Part shown: positions 4,391 through 27,974 of the stretch, in pieces
Numbering within the stretch: position 1 is the first letter of the stretch
How the letters are laid out: every line of letters begins with the position of its first letter
Origin: Trichodelitschia bisporula
Taxonomy: Eukaryota
Reading direction: 5' to 3'
Assembly (NCBI GenBank): GCA_010356995.1
Contig: ML996690.1
Location: 203,101-267,100 of the forward strand
DNA: 64,000 nt
Program-made: the position numbers and the translations under genes
Notes under the pieces: generated by a model
Told to the model about the DNA's origin: nothing
Databases searched by the model: none
Seen by the model: the letters and a program-made list of their open reading frames with translations, nothing else

Positions 4391-7300
4391 TTAAACGTTA
4401 GCACTGGTCAAATCCGGAAGGGGGATTATACTTTTCGAGCGACCTTGAGACGAAGTACCCGGAGCAAGTGTGCTACCCTTGGTGATTTTGCTAGCGGGCT
4501 TCTTCGTGGGTTTGCTGGTGGATTCGGCAGTGCTGCTCGGGGTGGAGGAGCTTCCCGGTAGCGACTGGCGAGACAACTTAGAGGAAGACCTCTTCTTGAC
4601 CTTTTCACCTGTCCCGTCAAGATTGCTGGGAAAGCTCTTTCTGACCGGCTTAGGCGGAACAACGAAACCGCCATTGCTGTTAAAGCTAGAGGCGGGCTTC
4701 GCAGGGACCTCAGGTTTCGTAGCCTGAGGCTTTGTAGTTTTGACGATCGTGCCGGGGCGAGGGGGTTTGCTGGAGGCGGGCTTGATCAGAGTTTGGCGCG
4801 CCGTGGCCTTCGAAGTTGGAGCGTCGGGGTTACGCGGCGCCACAGCTGGATTGACATTGCCGTTGGTGGGTTTCTCGGAAACCTTAGCTTTCTCAATGTC
4901 AGCTTCGATGTCAGGAGTGGGAGACATTTCCTGGTCGGTCACCAGTGCTGAGTCTACTGCAGATAGGACTTTGCCGTTAGTCACGTTCGTCAAGGAAGCA
5001 CCGGCCATGCCGTTAGCTGCTTCAATGGTACGCTGCTTCTTCGCAGGAAGACGCTGAGGCGTATCAAAAGCCTTGCGACGAGGGGCGTGGGAGCGAGCCA
5101 GAACACCTGAGACATCCGTAGTAGTAGATACGGAAGGAGTACTACAACGTTAGAGTACATACGAGATTGGGTTTGAGATACATACCGGCTGGCTTCAGGA
5201 GACACAATGGCTCGCATGGCCTCCAACGTCAGAACACGGGTCGTGTACCGCGGAGTGATGGTCCCATAGTAGTACTCAGAATAAGGAACTGGTTCTTGCC
5301 CATTCCTCACGAGATCAATCACGTAAGGAAGGTAGTCTTTGTCATGTCGAATCACGTAGTCATCCCAAAGGGATGGATGGGGACGGAACTCGGACGCCGA
5401 GCTCGCCTCAACGCAGATGTTCTTGAAATGGCCGATATTTCCGTGATACTCGGGGTACACTACGGAGAACTCGAGATATATCTCCTCAAGACTGGGAGCT
5501 TGGGCGGATGTCGGGACGAGCGCCCATGCGTGACCGCGTGAACTGACTGATATCGGAGACGCCTGCTGGAAGGACGTTGGATCAACCTGCATAGGCGATG
5601 CGGAACGATGCTGGAAAACAGTTGGGGATGGCTGCGCAGACTGGGGCTGCGACCCTTGAGTAAAACCAGGCGACTGGTATTCCAGGACGCGTGCCAGCGA
5701 CTTATGAGAGGAAACTGCAGAAGGTTGTCGAAGAAACGGACTCTGTTGCTGGATAGGGGTCCGGGCGCCGCTTGCGTTTGAAAAGGCATGAGGGCTCTCT
5801 GGAAGAGAGTGTTGAGACTCAATAGAGTGGCGCCGGGGACCTGGCAGAGATGGAGAAGGGACGAATCCAGGACTGATAGACGGCTCACGATTCATTATGC
5901 CGGCTCCAGATGCCGTTGGGGTTTGGGCATTCGGACCCTGCTCAGATCCTCCGTTGGGTGTCTGGTGTGCAGGAAAAGAATTGTCCTGCCCCATTGCCCG
6001 TAATTCCGCGTTCAACGATGCTCTGTTGGAAAATCCGACTGCTTCTGGTTGCGACGCAGCATGCATGTGCTCCGCGGTGGACAGTTCATGAGAACCAGTA
6101 GGTGCACTAGACAAGCTGCGTCTGCGGGCGTGAATTGCCGACAACCCGGAGCTCGGCAGGGCTGAGGTGCTCAAAGCCGACGACGCAAACGCAGCGCGGT
6201 AGCTTGATGACGACCGCAAAGGGGATGAGTTGGTTGCGGGTAAATTCGTCCCAAAGCTTTGCGTCTGGAATAATTCATGGACTTCGTTACGATGCTGCAC
6301 TTGTGTTGCCACCGCAGCATCCATCGCACTCTGGACGGGGTCTCGGCTAATAAAAGTCTTCTCAGCCGACATGGGGGAGATACCAGGAGGCTGAAAGCTG
6401 GTGGGAGCACTGTGCTTCGCAGATTGACCAGTGTATTCCAGCGACGATTGCGGAACAGATGTGGTGGAGGTGCTGGACTGGAGCCGCTTAGCAAGTCGGA
6501 CCTGCGGCGTGTCTTCTACTTCGACTACGACGTCAATGTTTACATTCGTCTCTACTGCTGTTTCGAGGGCTCGGGGAACATCCATTTCCATTTCCATTTC
6601 ACTGTCCTCTTCCTGGAGATCTTGACGCTTCTGGAGCCGTTGTTGTACATCGGCTGACTCGGCAAGCGGCCGCTTCTGATGCTCCTTGTGGCGCATATTG
6701 CCGGCATGGCCCAAATCTCGCACGGGGGAAGAATCTGGTGGAAGATCAGTGCCAGACGGCAAAGCGTCATCGTGTGCCCGCAAAGTAGGCGACAGTGGCC
6801 ACTCGTCTTCGCCCAACGCCTCGGAAGAGTCAGAATCAGAATCAGTATTGTTGACGTTTATTGCCTCAGCCACTTTCGGAGTGTCTGCATTCTTCGGCAT
6901 AGCCGAAGCACGATAACGCTCATACCACAAAGTCGGCACGTTGAGAACTGGGAATGAGACACCAGGGTGCTGTGGAAACCAGGAGGTGCGTTTCTCGAGA
7001 AGCTCCTCTTGATCCTTTGGAATAACTGTGAGCGTCCGAGTGATACGAGCAAAGCTGCTCCATGGATCAGATTTCTCAACCGCAGGACCCTTGGTCGATA
7101 CAACGGTGGACAACGCGGCGTCGGGCTCAGCAGTTACAACTGACTCGGGAGCATTGAGTGCAGATGGGACAGATTCAAGCTCGTCAAGATGGACTGGGTT
7201 GTCTTTTGTGGCGCCGAGTGTCGTCTCGAGGTTCAGGGCCGAGTCTCCAACTAACATGCCCGACTGCACGTTGAACGTGAGAAGCGACTCCGATGGGCCA

Positions 7301-8081
7301 TTGGTCAGGTTTGTAGATACCGTACCACCCCAGTCAAAATCCGGGAGCTCCTGCTTAATCACTGGCGTGATTTGACCATCTTGCAGAGGGGGCTCTGGAC
7401 CCCGAAGAGATGCTGTGTTGTGCACAAACTGTGTGGCGAATTGACTCTCTCCTACCCCATTAGGGGGCGCCATCTCAATCTCACAGAGCCGATCCAATTC
7501 TCTTATGAACTCCACGATTTTGGGAAGTGTCGCAGCCCAAGGTGGCTTATTGGGAATGGAAGACTTTCCGGTCACTGAGAACTTTTCCACGATGAGCTTG
7601 ACGGCAGAATCAACACCGCCGTAGCAGGTGAAGATCAGCTCGAACTCATGTAATTCAATGATGGCACCCGGAGAGAGCTGGTTGAGCTGCGGGACCGGTA
7701 AAGCCTGCAGCGCACCGGGGGTGATGGATACTGCGATAGATACATAATCGTCGGAGAGGATAGCATTCCGATAGGAAGTCGGGTCCGGCTTGTTTTGGAC
7801 CTACTGATATCAGCAAGTTCCGCAAAGGAAAATTGAACGCGACTTACGTCAATGATGTGCAAGACGTATGGGCCTCCTTTTTTCGAAGTGAATGTCGCGT
7901 GGACGTCGGCGTCGGTATACCTTGCGCCCGTCGAGCGATTGGTGAGCGGTGGAACTGTTTTTGAAGCACTGCGCCTCCAGGAAAGGAGGGGGTGAACCTC
8001 CTCGACAATGAATGTAGCAAGCCAATTATTCATGGACTGTGACGCGTCGTAAGGGAGTCGGGGAGTAGGTTGCGTCTCCAT
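4391..8081 (-). CDS. Shelterin TPP1/Est3-like OB-fold telomere protein with a long disordered region; exact 3' end uncertain
   Basis: Splicing GT-AG introns 7801-7847 and 5142-5185 joins ORFs 7635..8081, 4990..7590 and 4391..5008. The N-terminal part then reads NAILSDDYVSIAV...GAIIELHEFELIFTCYG, resembling the TPP1/Est3 OB fold. Internal block YPEYHG...HF...HPSLWDDYVIRH..DY..Y...PVPYSEYY matches what I recall from Pezizomycotina homologs. A further intron (GCTAAC...CAG near 4387-4402) may extend the C-terminus. Confidence 0.72.
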
Positions 8082-15774: not shown

Positions 15775-17288
15775 AGGTGCATTTTTTGGAGTATTGGGTG
15801 CTGGGGAGAAGTCGGTTGGCATGAGCGATTAGCGGGCTGTCGGAATCATTCGGTTGTTGTGAGCGATCAGCGAGCGGTGTTGCGCGATTCTGCCTGTCTG
15901 CGAACGGCGTTGGAGTCATGGGCATTACATGCGGTGGGCAGTATGACAGAGTAAGTGGCTGGTGAGACTCAGGTACGTTGGTAGTGTGCATTGAACTTTT
16001 CGTGGCGACTGCGGTGAGCGTTCGGGGATACCATAGCATCATACCCCCTCGGTTTAGGATGGCGAATCACTACATTATTTTGCTTGCTCACTGTTGGTTC
16101 CCTTGCACTGTGCTGCTTCGAAGGTGAGCAATCGCCATACTGCCCTTGGCCCATTGTTGCCTCTCTAGTTCTAGGTCCTGGCTGCTGTATCAAGCTCCTG
16201 TTGTGCGACCGGCCCGGACCCAAGACTACCGCACCTCCCCTCCCCTAACCCACTACTCCACGCCCAGCCATTCCGAAGGCTGTCACATTCTCCGCACGGC
16301 CTACTGGTAAGGTGTTCCGTAACACTCAACCGCTCCCCCGCACCAACCCTGGGATTTGGCCAGAGAGCTTCACCTCGGAGGCGCCTTCCCTTGCAGGGCG
16401 CTGTGATCGGTGATTTCTAGTAAAGTCAAAGTCTATGAGTGACGAGATTGATGGATAGTTATCACTACTTCATAAACTTTATCCATCCTAGAAAGGAATT
16501 TTATAGGCTGCGGCATGAACTGGTGGATTGGTGGAGTGGAAGTGGTTAGTGCCGGGTAACCTTGAACTAATCACTCTGCATTGTTGACGCTAGACCTTTC
16601 ACTTCCTCTTTCATTTTGGGCATTTGAGCAGGCATTACCCGCGCATGGTTGATCGGTCATCTCAAACCCATAATGAAGCCCATGTGATTCGAAGGGTGAC
16701 AAAAGTTCGGATGTGGGCCACATTATTTGGACGTTCATGTGTCCAGAGGTATATTCTTTGCGCCCTATTCATGATGCCAGGCTGAATCGTGAGGTGGGGT
16801 GTACACGCTTCGATTGATGCACTTTCTAAAAACAACCGTGCATCTGAGAGATTAGCAAGTACAAATACCAAGATGAAAGGCGTGCAGCCATATATGCGCC
16901 CGATCTGGGGGTCATTGAGTGCTTCATCAGGTGGCTATTTTGGGAAACAGGAAGGTTTGGATCGGGTACATGCCGCAATAGAGGAACGGACCCCGGTTCT
17001 CGGGTATTAAAGGCCAAATTTATGCACGCTATCTCATTCATATTCAAGCACATTTCACGTTGCAAAGCACGATCTTCCGCGGGACATTCAGTGTATTTCC
17101 TATGATATGGATCGTTTGACAGGAATTAAACAGTCAAGTACGAATTGTGTACAAAATTCTCATGAAATGGTCCACCTTAAACGCCCGCACATTTTTTTGT
17201 TCAAATCCACACAAGCAGACAATCAGCTACATTCGGAATGAGGCGTCCATGAACCCATGATGTTGGAGTGATTGTCGAGCACTGAAGT

Positions 17289-18776
17289 TTAGGTGGGTTT
17301 GAGTTGTTCTAGGCGCGTCAAGAGAGCCTCCAACGCCCCGATGTCCATGTCAAGCAGGTCGACCGGCTGATAAGGACCCGTCGGCGGAGCGGAGAATGCG
17401 GGCGGGGTGGTCGCAGCTAAGGCGGTTTGCGGTGAGTTCTGGAAATGACGATGAACCGGTGGAGTGGTGATTGCGGGAGGAGCCACGGCGGTGGTGAATG
17501 CGAGCGGAGGCATGTCGGCGGTGAGAGGGGGAAGAGCCACAGCGGCGGCGACTGTAGTAGGAGCCACAGCGGTGGTGACTATAGTAGAAGCCACGGTAGT
17601 AGTTGGAGTGGTAGAGATGTCAGGGTTGGCGGAGGTGGCAGTTGGAAGAACGATGCTGGCAGAGCCAGTGGTGGACGCTGCAACTTGTGCAGGCGAAGCA
17701 TTCCAGTTTGACTGAGGAATTTGAGGAGCAATTTCCGGTGTCGAAGAGTTGGACCCTGCAAACGGCAGCACTCCGATCGGCGTCCTCACCGAAGTGCGCA
17801 GCATTGCAGCGGTCATGACGAGTGCAGGATCGCGCGGCGGAGCGCTCTCAACATCCATGCCCTCCTTCTCTCTATGCACCGTGGTACACAAGATCTCATC
17901 GACCAGCAGGGCCAGGCCGGGGCAGGTCGCCTCCCAGAAGGCAAACGCCTCCTTCCACACCTCAGCATCGCGGTCTGGGAACTTGCGCCGAGTGGCCGTG
18001 ATGAAGAGGTGGGCAGCCCAGCGAATCATCCGGGAGTTCATGTCAATGAATCCCTGGTAGAAGAGCAACAACGACACCTTATTGAGACCTTCTATGTTGA
18101 CTGCCTTCCGGATGGACTCGCGCAGACGGAACGGGTCGTGAAGCGGCGCTTTCAGCTCCAGCAGCTCCAGGACATGGAAGATGGAGAGGAGGGTGATGAG
18201 ATCTTCGTCTCCCTTCAGTGGATACTGGTACTTTCCATAGAAAGTTGCCGGGACTGGAACTTTGAGCGTGTTGAGCCACAAAAGGACGTTTCGAAGAACC
18301 GGGATGTCTACGTGCTCTATGAATGAAGCGGGGAGGATGAGATTCGGCTGATTAGGGTTCAGGGCACTCGCAACCTTCAGGTAGCGACACACCCAGTTCG
18401 AGACGTGGACCAACTTGTTGAGACTGACGGCAAGACCCAGAGGCATCACGGCACTCTCGCCGCTGTGTTTGACAACGATGACTGAAGGGGAGACCGGAAC
18501 AATGCTGGAGCGCAGTTTGAACTCGTCGACCGGGTGTTTGACGGTGCGGCGCCACTTCTTCAAGTCATCGGTGCCATCAATCTCTTTGGCAATCATCTGC
18601 AGGGCCGGAACAACCTCCTCCATGGAGTAGAGTGTGTGCTTCGCCAGAATCGCAGCCGTGATCACATCATAGCGGTCGAAGAGCTTGAAGAGGATGCGCA
18701 GCATTTCAGCATCGTCGATGGTCGGGAAAGCTGCCTGGTATTTGACCAGAGCGCTTGAAATCTGTACTGAAGACAT
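17289..18776 (-). CDS. Unknown-family protein, paralog A (495 aa; probable divergent BTB-like core, Thr/Ala/Pro-rich tail)
   Basis: Intronless ORF from a good-context ATG (GCACCATG). Its motif GKYQYPLKGDEDLITLLS...LLELKAPLHD is shared with the two neighbouring genes. Confidence 0.8.
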   Translation of the reverse strand: MSSVQISSALVKYQAAFPTIDDAEMLRILFKLFDRYDVITAAILAKHTLYSMEEVVPALQMIAKEIDGTDDLKKWRRTVKHPVDEFKLRSSIVPVSPSVIVVKHSGESAVMPLGLAVSLNKLVHVSNWVCRYLKVASALNPNQPNLILPASFIEHVDIPVLRNVLLWLNTLKVPVPATFYGKYQYPLKGDEDLITLLSIFHVLELLELKAPLHDPFRLRESIRKAVNIEGLNKVSLLLFYQGFIDMNSRMIRWAAHLFITATRRKFPDRDAEVWKEAFAFWEATCPGLALLVDEILCTTVHREKEGMDVESAPPRDPALVMTAAMLRTSVRTPIGVLPFAGSNSSTPEIAPQIPQSNWNASPAQVAASTTGSASIVLPTATSANPDISTTPTTTVASTIVTTAVAPTTVAAAVALPPLTADMPPLAFTTAVAPPAITTPPVHRHFQNSPQTALAATTPPAFSAPPTGPYQPVDLLDMDIGALEALLTRLEQLKPT

Positions 18777-19449
18777 GGTGCGTTCAACAATTGAGGTTAG
18801 GTTTGTGGTTTGAAAGTTTCTGCGAACGGTGATTGTTCTGACCGCAGGCAAAGAGTGAAACGATAAATGATTTTGAGAGGATGGTGCAAGCGACTGGCAA
18901 ATGATGAAAAGCGCGGAGTTTGAGGGGTGGTTGAAGGGTGAAAGAAATTGCGGTGGAAGAAGTGACGGTGGAAGAATGTTTGAGGAGAGAAAATTGAGGA
19001 TTGCTGAAGAATGAAGTTGAAAGATAGAAAATGGTGTGGTCCTCCAGGTCCGAGCAACTGAAGCATATATCTTGGCGACGTCTACCGAATCGGGATATAC
19101 CTGCCAAGCCTGCCGCATACGGTCGCGGCAAATCCAAAACTCCAAATGCTCCTTCCTTGGCCTGTGCTCAGTGTATATAGACAATCATTCACTGTTGTTA
19201 GCGAAAGTCACGGCCTGGGCGAGGGGGGGGGGGGGTACATATACCGGCTCCTCAATCTGCTTTTACACTTCTTCTTGTACAACCCATTTCACAGTTCGCA
19301 AGCCCATCATCACGCACCCCAATCCTCAGTTCTTTTTTTCGACAGCAACACCCCTCACCACACTTCGATCAACTTTACCCCCTCCTCAGTTATTCAGCCA
19401 ACAGTCTCGGACTCAGCTTTTGATCAAACGCAACTCCACTGTCTTCAAA

Positions 19450-21009
19450 ATGGTGGGTCATTCAACTCTGAAGCCCATGGCCGCGATCAAGAGACCCGCA
19501 ATCACCTTCGACACGAACACCCTTCCTCAAGCTGCTTACATGGCAGTCAAAGGCTCGGACAACACCACGGATCTCAACGGCGAGTTGATGAAGTACGGCA
19601 ACATCGTTCCAGGGGCGGATCCCGACGTGGTTCGCAAGCTGTTCCACTTGTTTGCTCGCTACCCAAATCCGTCGATGGGGTACCTTTGCAACGCCACAGA
19701 CACCAACAAGGGTCAGCTTCTCAACATTCTCAAGGCCATTGCGCAGGAAGCCACCGGCGCTGGAGAGAACGGTTGGGTGTTGTCGGTCAAAGCTCCCATT
19801 GACGCTGTTCAGCTTCCAGCCGGCGTTGTTGATGTCACTCGCGCGTTGTTTGTGGTTGTTCGCTATGACAATAAGGGGCAAGCGATGTACAAGAAGGTCA
19901 GCACGAACATCACAGTTATGAAGCTCTGTCATGCTTCTAACTGGGTGTCTCGCCACGTCTCTGTCATGAAAGTCAACGGCTCTGCAGCTTGTGATCAGCC
20001 AAAGCAGGAGTTGGTCATTACCTTCCCCTCCCACTTCGCGAACTTTATCAATCCTAACACCATCGTGCGCCTTGGACTCTGGATCGGATCCTGCCAGCTT
20101 CCTGCTAGCGCAGCCTATAAGGGTAAATACCAGTACCCTTTGGCTGGCACGGAAACACTCTACGAGCTGCTCAGCTTGCAGCGCATCGTCAACCTCTTGG
20201 AGCTGAAGGCGCCACTCCATGACATGTTCAAGATTCGGCACCTCATCATCGCCCGTCTCCAACAGGCGGATGTCGAGATTGATCGGGTACATCTGATTCT
20301 GATGCATCTGTGCTTCGGGGATGTTGACAAGCCGCTTGTTGGCTTTGCAATTGCCCGCTTCATTGAGCAAGTCCATACTGTTTGCCCCGACCCGTACGGA
20401 GGCTTATGGGCTGACATTGATGAGTTCTGGGCAACATACTACCCGGCGCTGATTCCTATCGTCAATGACATTTATATGGAGTATGAGGTCGCTCTATATA
20501 TGAACTTCCAGGATCCATCGAACTTTCCTACCATCTCCGAACTGGCTTGGAAGCACTTTTGCGTCTCGACTCGCGTCGTTGGCGCAAAGAGCGCGGGGAA
20601 AGCTCGTTCCGGCAATGGGTTTGGAGTCAAGGCCCCTGCTCATAAAGCCCAACATGTCAATGGTGGTCGGATGGTTCAGAATTCCGGGAAAAAGCATAAG
20701 GGTAGCAAGCCTCAGATTCCGAACCAGCAGAAGTCGACTTCTCAGGCTGAGGCGCTTCCTGACGCAAGGACTCCTGTCCGGGGTTCTGTGAAGGGGACGG
20801 CTCCCCTTGAGCAGATTAAAAAGCACCTGGCGAAAAATGTCAATGTCAAGGTCGTCATCAAAGAAAAGACCAACAACACGAACGGGAAGCAATCCAAGGT
20901 CGACACCAACAACGGAAAGCATCCCAAGGTCCACGTTGAGGGTGGTACTCATCCGAAGGCCACCGTCAACGACGGCAATCAGCTGAAGACCAGCAACCAT
21001 GTGGAGTAG
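19450..21009 (+). CDS. Unknown-family protein, paralog B (519 aa; the frame stays open 59 more codons after the TAG, to 21189)
   Basis: ATG in TTCAAAATG context; motif GKYQYPLAGTETLYELLS...LLELKAPLHD; transcribed divergently from paralog A. Confidence 0.82.
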   Translation: MVGHSTLKPMAAIKRPAITFDTNTLPQAAYMAVKGSDNTTDLNGELMKYGNIVPGADPDVVRKLFHLFARYPNPSMGYLCNATDTNKGQLLNILKAIAQEATGAGENGWVLSVKAPIDAVQLPAGVVDVTRALFVVVRYDNKGQAMYKKVSTNITVMKLCHASNWVSRHVSVMKVNGSAACDQPKQELVITFPSHFANFINPNTIVRLGLWIGSCQLPASAAYKGKYQYPLAGTETLYELLSLQRIVNLLELKAPLHDMFKIRHLIIARLQQADVEIDRVHLILMHLCFGDVDKPLVGFAIARFIEQVHTVCPDPYGGLWADIDEFWATYYPALIPIVNDIYMEYEVALYMNFQDPSNFPTISELAWKHFCVSTRVVGAKSAGKARSGNGFGVKAPAHKAQHVNGGRMVQNSGKKHKGSKPQIPNQQKSTSQAEALPDARTPVRGSVKGTAPLEQIKKHLAKNVNVKVVIKEKTNNTNGKQSKVDTNNGKHPKVHVEGGTHPKATVNDGNQLKTSNHVE

Positions 21010-21920
21010 GCTCACGTCAACATCCAGGAGACGAAGCCTACCGATGCGAAGCCTGCCGTGGCGGACGGCACTGCGGTCGACAACACTACTACTACGGGTC
21101 CTGCGCTGGCCACCACTACCAACGCTACCAACGACTCTGACGGGTTCGTTGCCCAGGGTCGTAAGCGCCGCGTGAGGAAGTCAGGTTAGATGGTTGAACA
21201 CTGTGATGGACTTTGTGTAGAACTTACTACTGCGGGCATCATCTGCATGCTCAGCTAGTGATGAGTTTGAAAGATAGCCAATCAATTTATCTTAAAAATG
21301 ATCGTGCTTGCTGAATCGCCAAATCGTGAGCCCAGCATGACCGGGCCCATGATTGAACATGTTAAGGGACGTAGTATGTTGGTGTGATGGCCCTTGAAGT
21401 GACGTAGAACTAAACTCGCGATACCCCTGTCCGGCTCCCGGCCCCGTAAAGCTTATATTCTTAGGACCACGGCATGACTGGATCTGAAGATATTGGACGC
21501 GTACCAATCCGACAATTTCCTAGTCACACCCTTACTACAGGACCCGATGACTCTAAGAAACGTCCCGCGAACCATGGTACCTTCAAAATTTTGGTAGTAG
21601 GCTACGATTACTACGGTCGCTTCTACGCGCCGCTGGCAACGGATCCTAAACTTGATATGAATCCCTTCGCAATGTGTACCAAAAGAACCCTCTCATGACG
21701 CGAGAGTGGGATTATGTATACGTGTATCTTGAATGGGTACTTGTCCACTGGCACTTTTGCCTATCCTTTGTTCCAGTTCCCGTGAGTATAAAGTCTGCTG
21801 GTCTCCCTCAGAACTCACCCTGTCTTCAACCTTCTCCCCGCTCCACACACGCTACTACTCATTCAGCCATCACTCAACACATCCATCACTCAGTTTACTC
21901 CACGCTCAATACAATTCAAC

Positions 21921-23405
21921 ATGGCGCCCAGCTCCGTCATCTCCGACTCCTCTACCGCCTCCAACTCCTCTACCGCCTCCGACTCCTCTGCATTCTCCGG
22001 CTTCTCTACCGACTCCTACTTGTCTTTTGCCTCCGACATCTCCACCCCATTCTTGGGATTCAATCCTCACGCAATAAATTCCAATATGTCTCCTAGCTCC
22101 AAAATCTCTGACTTCTCTACCACTTCCGACATCTCCACCCCATTCTTGTGGTTGTACGGGTATCCCCACGCGATAAATTCCAACATATCTCTCAGCTCCA
22201 TGATCTCCGACTTCTCTACCGCTTCCGACTCCTCTACCGCCTCCCACTCCTCTACCAAATCCGATACCTCTGACGTCACCCAGATCTTACCGCAGTTTGT
22301 TCAAAAAGCGCAAAATGAAGGCTTGGAAATTTTTCAAATCGCTTTCCCGGCCTCCGACCCAAACGTGGTTCGGCAGCTTTTTACTGCTTTAGACAGATTC
22401 AAAAACAATACTTCAAAATATCTATCCGAAGTTACCGGCAAAGATCTGTCGGTCCTCCTCCCAGCGCTCACGATGATCGCTCAGGAGCACAAGCCCTCAG
22501 GTCGCGGTGACTCGTACTGGACGCGATTAATTGGTATCCCGCGTCCAGAGGACCTTGCGAAGTTCTGCGGCTACCTCGAAGAAGGAAATGAAGCAGAGTG
22601 GACCGCAGAGACGTACCCAGCGCTGTCTATGGAATCCCCCGAACTAGCATAGTATGTTCGCTGCTTGCGTAAAAGCATCAAGTGTAGGAACTTAGCTTTG
22701 ACTTCCAACCTGTTTGCCCGCCGAGTATCGGCTCACCGATGTCCGCCGATGGGAGATTGCTGGCAGTCATGCGTGATTGCGTGCTCTCTGGAAATTGACG
22801 CTACGTGTGTGGAGCGAGGTACTCAATGGCTGACAACCGTTGACCTGTCTTCGTCCGACCGTTATCAGGGGAAATTTCAGATGCCGCTTACAGGACGCGA
22901 GACCTTGCAAGAACTCTTATCACTTCAATGGCTGGTCGACGGCCTGGATCTAAAAGCACCATTCCACGACCAGTGGCGTCTCCGCAAAGCCATAATGTCC
23001 CGTCTTAAAAAAATCCAACTCCCAACAATAACCCACCTGGCAATGACCTACCTCTCTTTCAACGAGTTCGACAAAGTCTTTGTCCGCTGGGCCGCAATCC
23101 GGTGTGTCGAGAGTTTGTGGTTGCTCTACCCAGCAAACCGTTTTGCTAAGCTGTACCCTGACTTCTGGGAAGAGTACTATTCCGAGGTGTGTGAGATGGT
23201 CGACGAGTTGTGCGCAGATCCGCGAAGCAAGGGCGCTCTCACGGATGATCTGCCGATGGAAGGATGGTCGTGGCCATATGAGACCGACGCCTTCGAGGCC
23301 TATCAGGACTGGAGCAAGTGCCGGTGGAACTTCCGTCAGCCGGCGACAAAGGATCTAAGCGAGGAGGGCTTCATGTTTCCCGGGCGGAAGGGGCGTGCGA
23401 AGTAG
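21921..23405 (+). CDS. Unknown-family protein, paralog C, interrupted by one in-frame TAG at 22650-22652 (recoded gene or pseudogene)
   Basis: ORFs 21921..22652 and 22665..23405 are in the same frame. The N-half (FPASDPNVVRQLF...LTMIAQE) and C-half (GKFQMPLTGRETLQELLS...LDLKAPFHD) both align colinearly with A and B. TATAAA at about 21787. Confidence 0.75.
21930..22260 (+). repeat. Internal Ser-rich repeats in the 5' part of paralog C
   Basis: About 18-bp units (CTCCTCTACCGCCTCCGA-like) plus a ~95-bp duplication encoding SDISTPFL...PHAINSN twice. Confidence 0.75.
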
Positions 23406-24246
23406 GGCTGGTAGCCTTGGTTTGGCGAAAGCGTTTCGATGATTTAGGAATGGCCTGTATCGGAGTTTGAGGAGGAGCTTGTTCGTTCTGATCGACAGGA
23501 AAGTTGATGATACTCAGCAAGGGGTTAGGGACGTTTAACAGTGCTGTAAGGTCGACATTTTCATGGCACTGGGCGTTTGGATGGGTCGGCGGTTCCAATT
23601 TATCTTCGCACTTCAGTGTGACTTTTCATCAATTCCTCGCTAGAGCATGATCTTGGTACTTGTAGATGTGTATCCTGGCTTTGGTACCTTGCCCGGTTCC
23701 CGAAAAAGCACGCCGAACATGCGTCCTGATGTGGGTACGAAAGGGATGAGAGATTAAGGCAAAAATGCTTGCAACAACATACTTAACGTTAGAAGAAGCA
23801 TTCTACTCCTGAGAAAGGACCAAGGGTAATGAGGGTGATGTAGTCACAAAAGTGAGGAAGGAGCTATGGAGGTATCCACCACATCGTATATTCAGTTCTA
23901 AGAGCCTCTTCACTCTCTTCTTCCTTTATCTTTCATTTGCCCTTCACTTGGCCCAGTTGCAATGCACGTGTAAAGGGATCCCATACATTACCTCCGATCG
24001 GTATGTGGAGACCTACGCAGTTACAGATTGCTTTCGTGACTCCACAGGCGGATGCTGATACATCAACCTCTGTGCCATCGGTGGCCACTGTTTTGGTGGC
24101 TACTTTCCTTGCTTTGTTAGTCGTCAATCCTCCTTAGCAGTCGTCTGACTCTTTCATACACATCGTGTAGTCTTGACCGGAATCCCGGTGGCAGTCACAT
24201 AGCACCGTAGCACCCATTCCACAAACCAGGCGAACGAGCACGAGAT

Positions 24247-24704: not shown

Positions 24705-26427
24705 ATGCGGGCCAGACCCGTCCCTATAAGACGCCTGCTGCCTGCTCCGCAGCGCGTTTCCCGTCTCACCCCGCGCTTCCTCTCAACCTCACCCGCGATC
24801 CGCACCGACTGTGACCGCCCACGCATCACCCTGAAATTCACCCGCGACTTCCTCGAGAAACACGCCACACCACGCCGCACAATGCCAGACCTAAAAGTCA
24901 AGCTCACGGCGCCGAACGGCACCGAATACACACAGCCGACAGGGCTGTTCATCAGCAATGAATGGGTGCCCAGCAGCGACGGCGGGACCATCACCAGCAT
25001 AGACCCTACGTACCGCCCCCTCACTGCTTGCCCGGCACCCGCTAACCCTTCTCAGGACCGAAGAAGTCATAACCTCCGTCTCCGCCGCAACAGAGTCCGA
25101 CATCGACGCCGCCGTCCGCGCCGCCCACCGCGCCTTCAAATCAGAGTGGCGCTCCTTCGAAGGAACAGCCCGCGGTGCATTGCTCTACGAATTAGCCGCC
25201 CTCGTCGACGCGCATGCCTCCACCCTCGCCGCCATCGAAACATGGGATAACGGCAAGCCCTACACCGTCGCGCTGACCGAAGACCTGGTCGAAGTATCCG
25301 CCGTGCTGCGGTATTACGCCGGGTGGGCAGACAAGATCTCCGGCAAGGTCATCGACACCACTTCTGCGAAACTGACCTACACGCTGAGGCAGCCGCTGGG
25401 CGTGTGCGCGCAGATTATACCGTGGAATTATCCGCTGGCCATGGCGGCGTGGAAACTGGGTCCTGCGTTGGCGGCGGGGAATACGGTTGTGCTGAAGGCG
25501 GCGGAGCAGACGCCGCTCAGTATACTGTATCTGGCGGAGCTGGTTAAGAAGGCCGGTTTCCCGCCAGGCGTGGTGAATGTTGTGAACGGGTATGGCCGCG
25601 TGGCGGGCGCGGCGCTGGTACAGCATCCGCTTGTTGCGAAAGTGGCATTTACAGGCTCCACAGCCACGGGGAAGGAAATCATGAAGATGGCGGCCGGCGG
25701 GCTGAAGAACATAACGTTGGAAACGGGCGGCAAGTCGCCGTGTCTTATCTTCGCAGATGCGGATCTGGATCAGGCGGTGAAGTGGGCGCACGTCGGCATC
25801 ATGAGCAACATGGGGCAGGTGTGCTGCGCCACAAGCCGCATCTACGTGCACGAGGATCTGTACGAGAGGTTCCTGGAAGGGTTTGCCGCGAGAGTGAAGG
25901 AGGTGAGTGTGATTGGGAGTCCGTGGGAGGAGGGCACGTTCCAGGGCCCACAAGTCACGAAAAGGCAACAAGAACGCGTGTTGGGGTATATCGAGGCGGG
26001 ACTGAGTGAGGGCGCGCGGCTTGTTACCGGCGGTAAGGAGGCTGCAGGGCAGGGAAAGGGGTTCTTCGTCGCGCCGACTGTGTTCGCGGATGTGCGTGAG
26101 GATATGCAGGTCGTCAAGGAGGAGGTTTTTGGTCCCGTCGTTACTGTCTCATCCTTCAAAGACGAGGACGAAGTCCTGGCCCGCGCGAACGATACCATGT
26201 ACGGCCTGGGCGCGGCGGTGTTCACGGCCGATATTGCAAGGGCGCATCGCATTGCGGCGTCCTTGGAGTCGGGCACGGTGTGGGTTAATAGTTCTAATGA
26301 CGGCGATTTTAGGGTGCCGTTTGGGGGGGTCAAGATGAGTGGGATTGGGAGGGAGTTAGGTGAGGCGGGGCTGGATGGGTATACGAGTACGAAGGCAGTT
26401 ATGGTTAATTTGGGGACGAGATTGTAG
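24705..26427 (+). CDS. NAD(P)-dependent aldehyde dehydrogenase (ALDH1/2-like); alternative start at 24882
   Basis: IIPWNYP, FTGST, catalytic LETGGKSP and NMGQVCCA, EEVFGPV, PFGGVKMSGIGRELG. Intron 25010-25055 joins the two ORFs in frame. Confidence 0.94.
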
Positions 26428-27188: not shown

Positions 27189-27974
27189 ATGAACACGACG
27201 GCCAACATGACCACCCTTTCATCACAAGAACTAGAACTAATCCGTTTCTCCCTCCCCCACCCCACAACCCACACCCCGCAATACACCCAATCCATCCCCG
27301 CCCCCATCCTCCTAACCTACAGCGCCTACGCCCAGCGACACCTCGCAACCGCGATCATCTCCTCCCGCCGCAAGCCCCGAAAAAGCAAGGTGCCTAAAAC
27401 GCTGGCTACTATACCCCTCCTCCCGCACTCCGCAACCCTGCTCGCCCTGAAGCACGTCCTCGTCTTCATCAAAACCGTGCACGGGCTTCCGTTGCTCCCA
27501 TCTGCGACGCCCTTCATCCGTCTAACGGGCCTGTGGACCTTCGCCGAAGCCGCGGGGCTGTACAGGACGTGCCTGACGCTGGAGCTGCCATGGCCGCAGG
27601 TGCGGCTGCTGGATGAGTTACGGGCGGTGATTGGCGAGCGGCCGCTGACGGTGGAGGAGGTGAGGGTCGTTTGGGAGTGTTTTCCTCGCTTTAGGGAGGA
27701 TGGGTTGGTGAGGGATATGCTGCTGTGTTGGGGGCGGTGGGTGGGTAAGATCTGGCCCGGGAAGGGGGAGATGAGGAGGTATCTGAGGGCGAATCCGGAA
27801 CTGTGTAGGGCGATTGAGGAGGCGAGGAAGGAGAATCCCGGGGTGTGGGTTGAGAGGGTGGGGGGGGAGGAGAGGAGGTGGGAGGATGTTAGGAGGGGGG
27901 TTAGGCCGTTGACGAGGGAGTTTTTGAGGGAGATGAGGGGGATGGAGGGTGAGGATGGGGGGGGGGGGCTGTGA
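27189..27974 (+). CDS. Hypothetical protein with a divergent BTB/POZ-like pattern
   Basis: 261-aa ORF with ACAATCATG start. The pattern IPAPILLTYSAYAQRHL...ALKHVLVFI...LYRTCLTLEL...LTVEEVRVVWECF is reminiscent of fungal BTB-like proteins. Confidence 0.65.
   Translation: MNTTANMTTLSSQELELIRFSLPHPTTHTPQYTQSIPAPILLTYSAYAQRHLATAIISSRRKPRKSKVPKTLATIPLLPHSATLLALKHVLVFIKTVHGLPLLPSATPFIRLTGLWTFAEAAGLYRTCLTLELPWPQVRLLDELRAVIGERPLTVEEVRVVWECFPRFREDGLVRDMLLCWGRWVGKIWPGKGEMRRYLRANPELCRAIEEARKENPGVWVERVGGEERRWEDVRRGVRPLTREFLREMRGMEGEDGGGGL

Follow-up and report, generated by a model that had tools for sequence, protein, structure and literature searches.

A Divergent Paralog Cluster of Trichodelitschia bisporula with a Candidate BTB/POZ-Like Core and One TAG-Interrupted Copy

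Introduction

BTB/POZ-BACK proteins, such as SPOP, the KLHL/KBTBD proteins, gigaxonin, plant NPR1 and vaccinia A55, are built from a β-hairpin and helices followed by a helical extension, and the wider BTB fold includes Skp1 and Elongin C. The MATH-BTB genes of grasses are reportedly an example of a lineage-specific and fast-evolving BTB expansion. Here we describe a cluster of three genes, A, B and C, at positions 17289–23405 of a 64,000-nucleotide stretch of DNA from Trichodelitschia bisporula, a dung-dwelling ascomycete of the class Dothideomycetes (GenBank assembly GCA_010356995.1, contig ML996690.1, positions 203,101 to 267,100 of the forward strand). The whole stretch is called the window, and all positions are counted from its first letter. 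The reading that is favoured for the locus as a whole, with slightly better than even confidence, is that A, B and C, together with a distant fourth copy, D, belong to a very divergent, lineage-restricted family with the BTB/POZ fold that has expanded in tandem, and that C is a degenerating copy.

The comparison with the described systems can be summarized as follows. Residues 93–305 of A are modelled with the same plan as the BTB/POZ-BACK proteins, that is, a β-hairpin and helices and then a helical extension. Unlike those proteins, the family has no match to PF00651, and its identity to the structurally matched chains is 8–18%. It also lacks a Kelch, MATH, zinc-finger or ankyrin partner, in whose place there are a small helical domain at the N-terminus and a disordered tail built of repeats, and it carries a signature of its own, GK[YF]QxPLxGxE...L[ED]LKAP[LF]HD. 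Similarly, A–D resemble the MATH-BTB genes of grasses in being a local expansion of a BTB fold with strongly divergent and broken copies, but the grass proteins are said to be recognisable by Pfam and to have a substrate-binding MATH domain, and the expansion found here is small.

The Paralogous Genes and Their Family

A sequence-only reading of this stretch had proposed that A, B and C are paralogs, and this is borne out by the alignment of their cores over ~300 amino acids (aa), in which A shares 31% of its residues with B and 27% with C and 50 of the 332 columns are invariant. With A as the tblastn query on the 64-kb window, B is found at E=1.8e-39 and C at E=1.6e-16. All of the motifs cited in that reading are found in the alignment; the S-N-W, GKYQYPL and LELKAPLHD motifs lie within A residues 93–305. 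The genes and their parts are as follows.

17289–18776, minus strand: paralog A, an intact open reading frame (ORF) of 495 aa with the stop codon TAA, identical to the annotated model P0001.
18501–18776, minus strand: A residues 1–92, the N-terminal helical block, which is common to A, B, C and P0005 in the alignments.
17862–18500, minus strand: A residues 93–305, the predicted BTB/POZ-like core with a helical BACK/3-box-like extension (AlphaFold2 model, VIA-align and ESM Atlas).
17464–17594, minus strand: 27-nt tandem repeats (x4.3) that encode the T/A/P-rich C-terminal tail of A.
19450–21009, plus strand: paralog B, an unbroken ORF of 519 codons with the stop codon TAG.
21921–23405, plus strand: paralog C, 243 codons, a TAG and 251 more open codons with the conserved BTB/BACK-like core.
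21941–22256, plus strand: tandem repeats of 18-nt and 99-nt (x2.1) units that encode the S/T-rich N-terminal extension of C.
27189–27974, plus strand: copy D, an ORF of 261 aa beyond the aldehyde dehydrogenase (ALDH) gene, annotated only as the 155-aa model P0010.

A and B are arranged head-to-head, as had been noted, and are separated by 673 bp; the low-complexity extensions, which differ from copy to copy, are also present and consist in part of tandem repeats, the tail of B being K/N/G-rich and ending at its TAG. The transcript evidence comes only from contigs of the runs X1 and X2, which belong to one sample of one study and are marked 'RNA?'. These contigs are taken as RNA-derived because they lack GT..AG introns, such as the 46-nt ALDH intron at 25010–25055. 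They cover A without a joint, and A is therefore regarded as intronless; its ORF equals the annotated 495-aa model, so that the earlier description of A as intact stands.

A profile built from the A/B/C core, a search that had been suggested together with the paralogy, found eight proteins at E≤1e-3 among 1,835,955,588 representative proteins and no widespread family. Three of the eight are the window's own, being the models annotated for A, B and C; P0005 and P0008 are additional paralogs and lie on another contig of Trichodelitschia bisporula, P0004 is from a Logan assembly, and P0006 and P0007 are from JGI metagenomes. A word-based search with A and with the family alignment returned nothing beyond A's own model and P0006, the same search with D returned only D's own annotated model, and metagenome locus scans with P0007 and with the A+B alignment gave no confirmed relative.

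Copy D was aligned to the family profile by hhalign with a probability of 90.9% and E=1.1e-6 over 139 columns; in hmmsearch, it was found at E=5.5e-5 among the 412 stop-to-stop ORFs of the window, every other ORF having E>1. D is probably a fourth, distant member of the family; with D counted, the window contains four copies, and at least two more are found elsewhere in the genome. Judged by these comparisons, the family is probably lineage-restricted, with three, probably four, very divergent copies between or near housekeeping genes. The suggestion of an old local expansion agrees with the 27–31% identity among A, B and C and with the more distant D.

Structure of the Conserved Core

At the level of the fold, A residues 93–305 are assigned with moderate confidence to the BTB fold, the core being extended by helices of a BACK/3-box-like type, because the results of both VIA-align and the ESM Atlas point to BTB. 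The AlphaFold2 (AF2) model of A was searched exhaustively with VIA-align against 48,161 chains, and the figures given here are from the 50 rows listed. Ranks 1–8 all belong to the BTB superfamily, with Z from 8.8 to 7.0 and 93–179 residues aligned within 93–305. NPR1 was matched with Z of 8.8 and 8.7 (173 and 179 residues aligned), SPOP with Z of 8.7 and 7.6, and the BTB domain of gigaxonin with Z of 7.5 and a root-mean-square deviation of 2.8; ASK1, KBTBD2 and the BTB-BACK region of vaccinia A55 are also included in these ranks. The best unrelated row has a Z of 7.0 and covers 66 helical residues.

In the ESM Atlas, the search by features gave values of 0.97, 0.95 and 0.95 to clusters of Ascomycota, one of which bears the automatic name 'putative BTB domain-containing protein', and a further cluster, with PF00651 in 39% of its members, was reached at 0.94; the search by the atlas's own structure model gave BTB-BACK, Skp1 and KEAP1 clusters. 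The weak rows of a Foldseek search are likewise rich in BTB entries (NPR1, A55, KBTBD2, SPOP and KLHL11). In addition, helices 233–304 of the A model overlay the BACK/3-box parts of SPOP, KLHL11, KLHL3 and A55, which is a likeness of shape only. The order of the elements in A, namely a hairpin, the S-N-W helix, the 'LILP' strand, the W helix and the helix pair around LKAPLHD, is one that we take to fit the BTB layout. In the model, the 'L...SN' motif may be read as part of the first BTB helix, and the signature GK[YF]QxPL...LKAPLHD as the loop and helix pair that follow.

Several results weigh against this assignment and would suit an unlikely alternative, in which the core has no true relationship to BTB and its alpha/beta-plus-helical fold merely looks like BTB by chance or through model bias. 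At E≤1, no Pfam family was matched by A, B or read-through C; D has no Pfam family either, and PF00651 in particular was matched by none of the ten family proteins (A, B, C and P0004–P0009 at E≤1; D at E≤5). The family profile found nothing below E=0.18 among the PDB sequences, and the match at that value, staphylopine dehydrogenase, was taken as chance. The AF2 model of A residues 1–305 rests on an alignment of eight sequences and has a mean pLDDT (predicted local distance difference test) of 69.9 and a pTM (predicted template modelling score) of 0.68; the pLDDT is 80–91 in blocks across residues 121–300 and 40–57 over residues 91–120, the hairpin region. A Foldseek search of the PDB with the A model gave no match at E≤1e-3, and the structural Z, at most 8.8, is barely above the range of 7–8 that is stated for the tool as common for unrelated models. 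The alternative is opposed by the uniformity of the VIA-align result, in which one superfamily fills ranks 1–8 and BTB/POZ, Skp1 or Elongin C entries make up about 30 of the 50 rows listed, with the alignments of the leading ranks lying within 93–305. It is also opposed by the ESM Atlas, which reaches BTB clusters both through sequence features and through a separate model of its own.

The family had previously been called unrecognised, and this remains correct for the sequence libraries; at the level of the fold, the assignment of its core to BTB/POZ takes the place of that description. The proposed check with AlphaFold and Foldseek turned out in the same divided way, with no Foldseek match at the above threshold and a BTB result from VIA-align of the AlphaFold model. 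As for the N-terminal ~90 residues, they are helical, and the AF2 model of A residues 1–92 alone has a pLDDT of 56. In VIA-align, residues 19–79 of A match an entry of a ZBP1 nucleic-acid complex with Z of 5.7, which is a weak lead, and in the ESM Atlas the domain has no usable feature match, its structure rows being all at a template modelling score (TM) below 0.5 and including some helix-turn-helix families.

The In-Frame TAG of Paralog C

The TAG codon that had been reported in C is present and lies within the domain, and the most likely reading is that C was inactivated recently and is degenerating, rather than being recoded. Two features of C are discussed in this section.

22650–22652, plus strand: the in-frame TAG of C, opposite A109 in the second β-strand (E107–113) of the modelled BTB hairpin.
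22656–22814, plus strand: the 159-nt annotated 'intron' of model P0002, which encodes NLALTSNLFARRVS, the BTB helix-1 motif, and is most likely coding.

The alignment column at the TAG holds Ala in A and Met in B, the homology of C to A and B resumes 11 codons past the TAG, and a GTATGT string overlaps the TAG. The public model P0002 (440 aa) lacks the 53 residues after the TAG, and no single intron reproduces it; by our reading, P0002 skips the TAG codon and then removes 22656–22814. This stretch is regarded as coding sequence because the helix-1 motif is encoded there and three distant relatives align to it in frame: in the frame of C, the tblastn matches begin at 22686 for P0006 and P0009 and at 22722 for P0007. 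P0002 is thus an artefact, as is the public model of B (P0003, see below), and apparently skips the stop codon and deletes 159 nt of the domain.

It is highly improbable that the TAG is removed by splicing, whether as in P0002 or through another intron, leaving C as an intact, intron-bearing gene. Such a gene would be consistent with the perfect donor string GTATGT at the TAG, with the P0002 model, with the end of one contig exactly at 22652, with four in-frame GT..AG pairs of 51–75 nt (weak donors at 22613 and 22625) whose use would remove the TAG, and with the GTACCG donor that is used in an ALDH intron. However, no joint is found anywhere in C among the contigs, and the annotated acceptor at 22814/22815 is crossed unspliced by one contig, which extends 37 letters beyond it. 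One intron is not enough to make P0002, and by our reading the TAG codon has to be skipped as well; the stretch that the model removes codes for the L..SN..AR motif, and P0006, P0007 and P0009 align to it in frame. From the GTATGT donor, the single frame-keeping acceptor within 400 nt yields a 36-nt intron whose removal recreates the TAG, and the four smaller introns would delete the BTB β-hairpin.

The described genes closest to C in this respect are those with restorative editing, which is well described for UAG codons in F. graminearum and N. crassa in the consulted part of PMC10776026. According to the portion of PMC11087585 that was available, the interaction of Tad3 and Ame1 that enables mRNA editing originated in Sordariomycetes, no editing was found in Leotiomycetes, and Pyronema acquired editing independently. 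Like the restorative edited genes of Fusarium and Neurospora, C has a conserved ORF that is intact except for a lone UAG in frame, and the annotation gets past this codon by means of an artificial intron; a UAG inside conserved coding sequence, one criterion of restorative (premature stop codon, PSC) edited genes, is found in C only and not in B.

Nevertheless, it is very unlikely that C is functional with its UAG recoded, either by sexual-stage A-to-I (adenosine-to-inosine) editing of UAG to UGG (Trp) or by ribosomal readthrough, with the stop codon of B perhaps edited likewise to add 59 aa. Recoding would explain why the TAG is the single defect among 243 + 251 otherwise open and conserved codons, and why the annotators also had to skip the TAG codon. 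The UAG supplies the U at position −1 that is favoured by fungal editing (PMC11156358, in the text available), the UAG is predicted to occupy the loop above a 5-bp stem in a 31-nt fold, and the part of PMC10776026 that was consulted describes restorative UAG editing of 71 pseudogenes in F. graminearum. On the other hand, the hairpin does not exceed chance (z=−1.1, with 25 of 200 shuffles as good; z=−0.25 for the 61-nt context), and the residues aligned with the UAG are the Ala and Met given above and not Trp. The contigs show no edited RNA and no alternative letter at the TAG, though they end there, and the 59-codon extension of B is within chance. Furthermore, the host belongs to the Dothideomycetes, a class for which no report of A-to-I RNA editing was found, judging by titles and abstracts, and which is outside the two lineages, Sordariomycetes and Pyronema, to which the above portion of PMC11087585 assigns the origins of the editing.

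The view of C as a degenerating copy has its own difficulties. Past the TAG, the frame stays open for 251 codons and keeps all family-invariant residues, so the decay can at most be recent. The contigs over C, at 21836–22652 and 22638–22851, contain no other letter and no joint; each of the two has one of its ends at the TAG, and no contig crosses the site with 31 letters to either side, so that the RNA letter at the TAG is poorly established. The contigs over C give no strand, and the presence of sense RNA of B or of C cannot be read from contigs. The two contigs of C meet at the TAG/GTATGT site, 22638–22652, in an overlap of 15 letters without a joint or a loose end. The stretches 21438–21754 and 23340–23656 are uncovered by contigs, and coverage of the 3' half of C is very sparse.

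Stop Codon, Gene Model and Antisense RNA of Paralog B

B had also been described as interrupted by an amber codon, and this description is not upheld. The TAG of B at 21007–21009 reads as an ordinary stop codon because the ORF before it is unbroken, the annotated model P0003 stops at this codon too, and the open stretch after it is within chance; it is the first stop of the 519-codon ORF and lies ~170 codons beyond the conserved core. Therefore, the premise of two amber-interrupted copies drops to one. The features that concern B are as follows.

21010–21189, plus strand: 59 open codons after the stop codon of B, of a length within chance and not counted as coding.
19961–20021, minus strand, antisense to B: a 61-nt intron, GTAATG...ACAG, removed in X1 and X2 contigs.
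20827–20883, minus strand, antisense to B: a 57-nt intron, GTTCGT...GCCAG, removed in one X2 contig whose shorter side has 28 letters.

An open stretch of 59 codons or more was obtained in 1303 of 20000 shuffles of the sequence downstream of B, and 14.2% of the 3645 stop-to-stop gaps in the window are that long. The public model P0003 (340 aa) has a start in a shifted frame and regains the frame of B through a junction at 19960/20022 that is on the wrong strand; at 19931–20023, P0003 is thus an artefact that borrows an antisense splice junction.

In the one sample, the RNA detected over B is spliced antisense RNA. It is recognised as antisense because the ends of the introns are canonical only on the minus strand: both introns have CT..AC ends on the plus strand, and TTGAC branch-like sites are found on the minus strand. 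The splicing splits a 304-aa antisense ORF into 128 + 156 aa. A coding gene antisense to B was considered and rejected, since the splicing breaks antisense ORFs and does not join them, and for the same reason the antisense RNA across the whole B gene is apparently non-coding. It may restrain B. Over the contigs at 17100–21410, the antisense RNA region is continuous with the transcript region of A; continuity with the A mRNA at the RNA level is not settled by the contigs. The spacer between A and B contains a run of 13 G at 19225–19237, where one X1 contig is one letter shorter (at 19236). A joint at 19185/19238 (52 nt, X2 only) abuts this run and has no GT..AG ends at any cut position tried.

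Neighbouring Genes and Base Composition

The cluster is flanked by an MSH6-like MutS gene, by FAB1, in which FYVE, Cpn60_TCP1 and PIP5K domains were found, and by the aldehyde dehydrogenase gene; FAB1 and ALDH had been named as neighbours before, and their domains confirm this. Between MSH6 and FAB1, there is an S/P-rich ORF of 866 aa (4990–7590, minus strand). Between C and ALDH, one low-depth X1 contig has a 52-nt joint at 24107–24158 whose ends read CT..AC, or GT..AG when taken on the minus strand, and which hints at an unannotated spliced RNA of the minus strand.

The region had been described as less GC-rich than its flanks. The guanine–cytosine (GC) content is 57.1% in A, 53.1% in B and 52.8% in C, compared with 56.0% in FAB1, 58.3% in MSH6 and 60.6% in ALDH; the description is thus only partly right, and the GC of third codon positions (GC3) of the three genes, 0.63–0.67, is equal to that of FAB1 (0.66). 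Repeat-induced point mutation (RIP) was considered as a cause of the TAG and of the gene divergence and was rejected for the genes, as A and B have TpA/ApT values of 0.42–0.47 and composite values of 1.30–1.36; the indices of C (TpA/ApT 0.71, composite 1.09) are the same as those of ALDH. The spacer between B and C, 21010–21920, is RIP-like, with TpA/ApT of 0.98 and a composite value of 0.98, and the surrounding genes are unlike it in this respect.

Possible Role and Significance

Three parts would make up each protein of the family: a small domain of helices at the N-terminus, the BTB core, which continues into helices of a BACK/3-box-like type, and a copy-specific disordered tail derived from repeat expansion. 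By analogy with BTB-BACK proteins, the core may act as an oligomerising scaffold, possibly as a substrate adaptor of cullin-3, a role that we propose tentatively and at rather less than even confidence. In that case, binding of partners would fall to the N-terminal domain or to the repeat-made tails.

The sequence-only reading had suggested other roles, namely a sexual-stage system, non-self recognition, poison-antidote drive and stop-codon A-to-I editing, and none of the analyses gave support to any of them. These ideas are weakened because only one copy is interrupted by a TAG, the host is a Dothideomycete, and the core has a known fold, BTB/POZ. That the cluster is a conflict system, either a poison-antidote spore killer or a locus of non-self recognition (heterokaryon incompatibility), is extremely improbable. 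The circumstances that would agree with it are a fast-evolving, lineage-restricted and clustered family, variable tails and one broken copy; but none of the searches made here gave a resemblance to any domain known from killers or incompatibility proteins, the Pfam search was empty, the fold is that of a general scaffold, and the copies, at the identities given above, are old and not a young selfish duplication.

A broader form of the recoding idea would join the observations on B and C: C would be alive, its UAG being recoded only during the development of the fruiting body, and B would be held off in the mycelium by the antisense RNA, giving a set of stage-switched BTB-fold adaptors and a case of editing in a Dothideomycete. 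This is a long shot. If recoding at the UAG of C were true, restorative A-to-I mRNA editing would extend beyond the documented Sordariomycetes and Pezizomycetes, and the known range of fungi with such editing would be widened.

The results presented here are mainly a tidying of the record, in which two public gene models are shown to be artefacts and the two genes claimed to be amber-interrupted are reduced to one. 'Hypothetical proteins' without a family gain a fold assignment, BTB/POZ with a BACK-like extension. Otherwise, if there is no recoding, the locus would be a fairly ordinary case of birth and death in a fast-evolving family of fungal scaffold proteins, with one broken copy.

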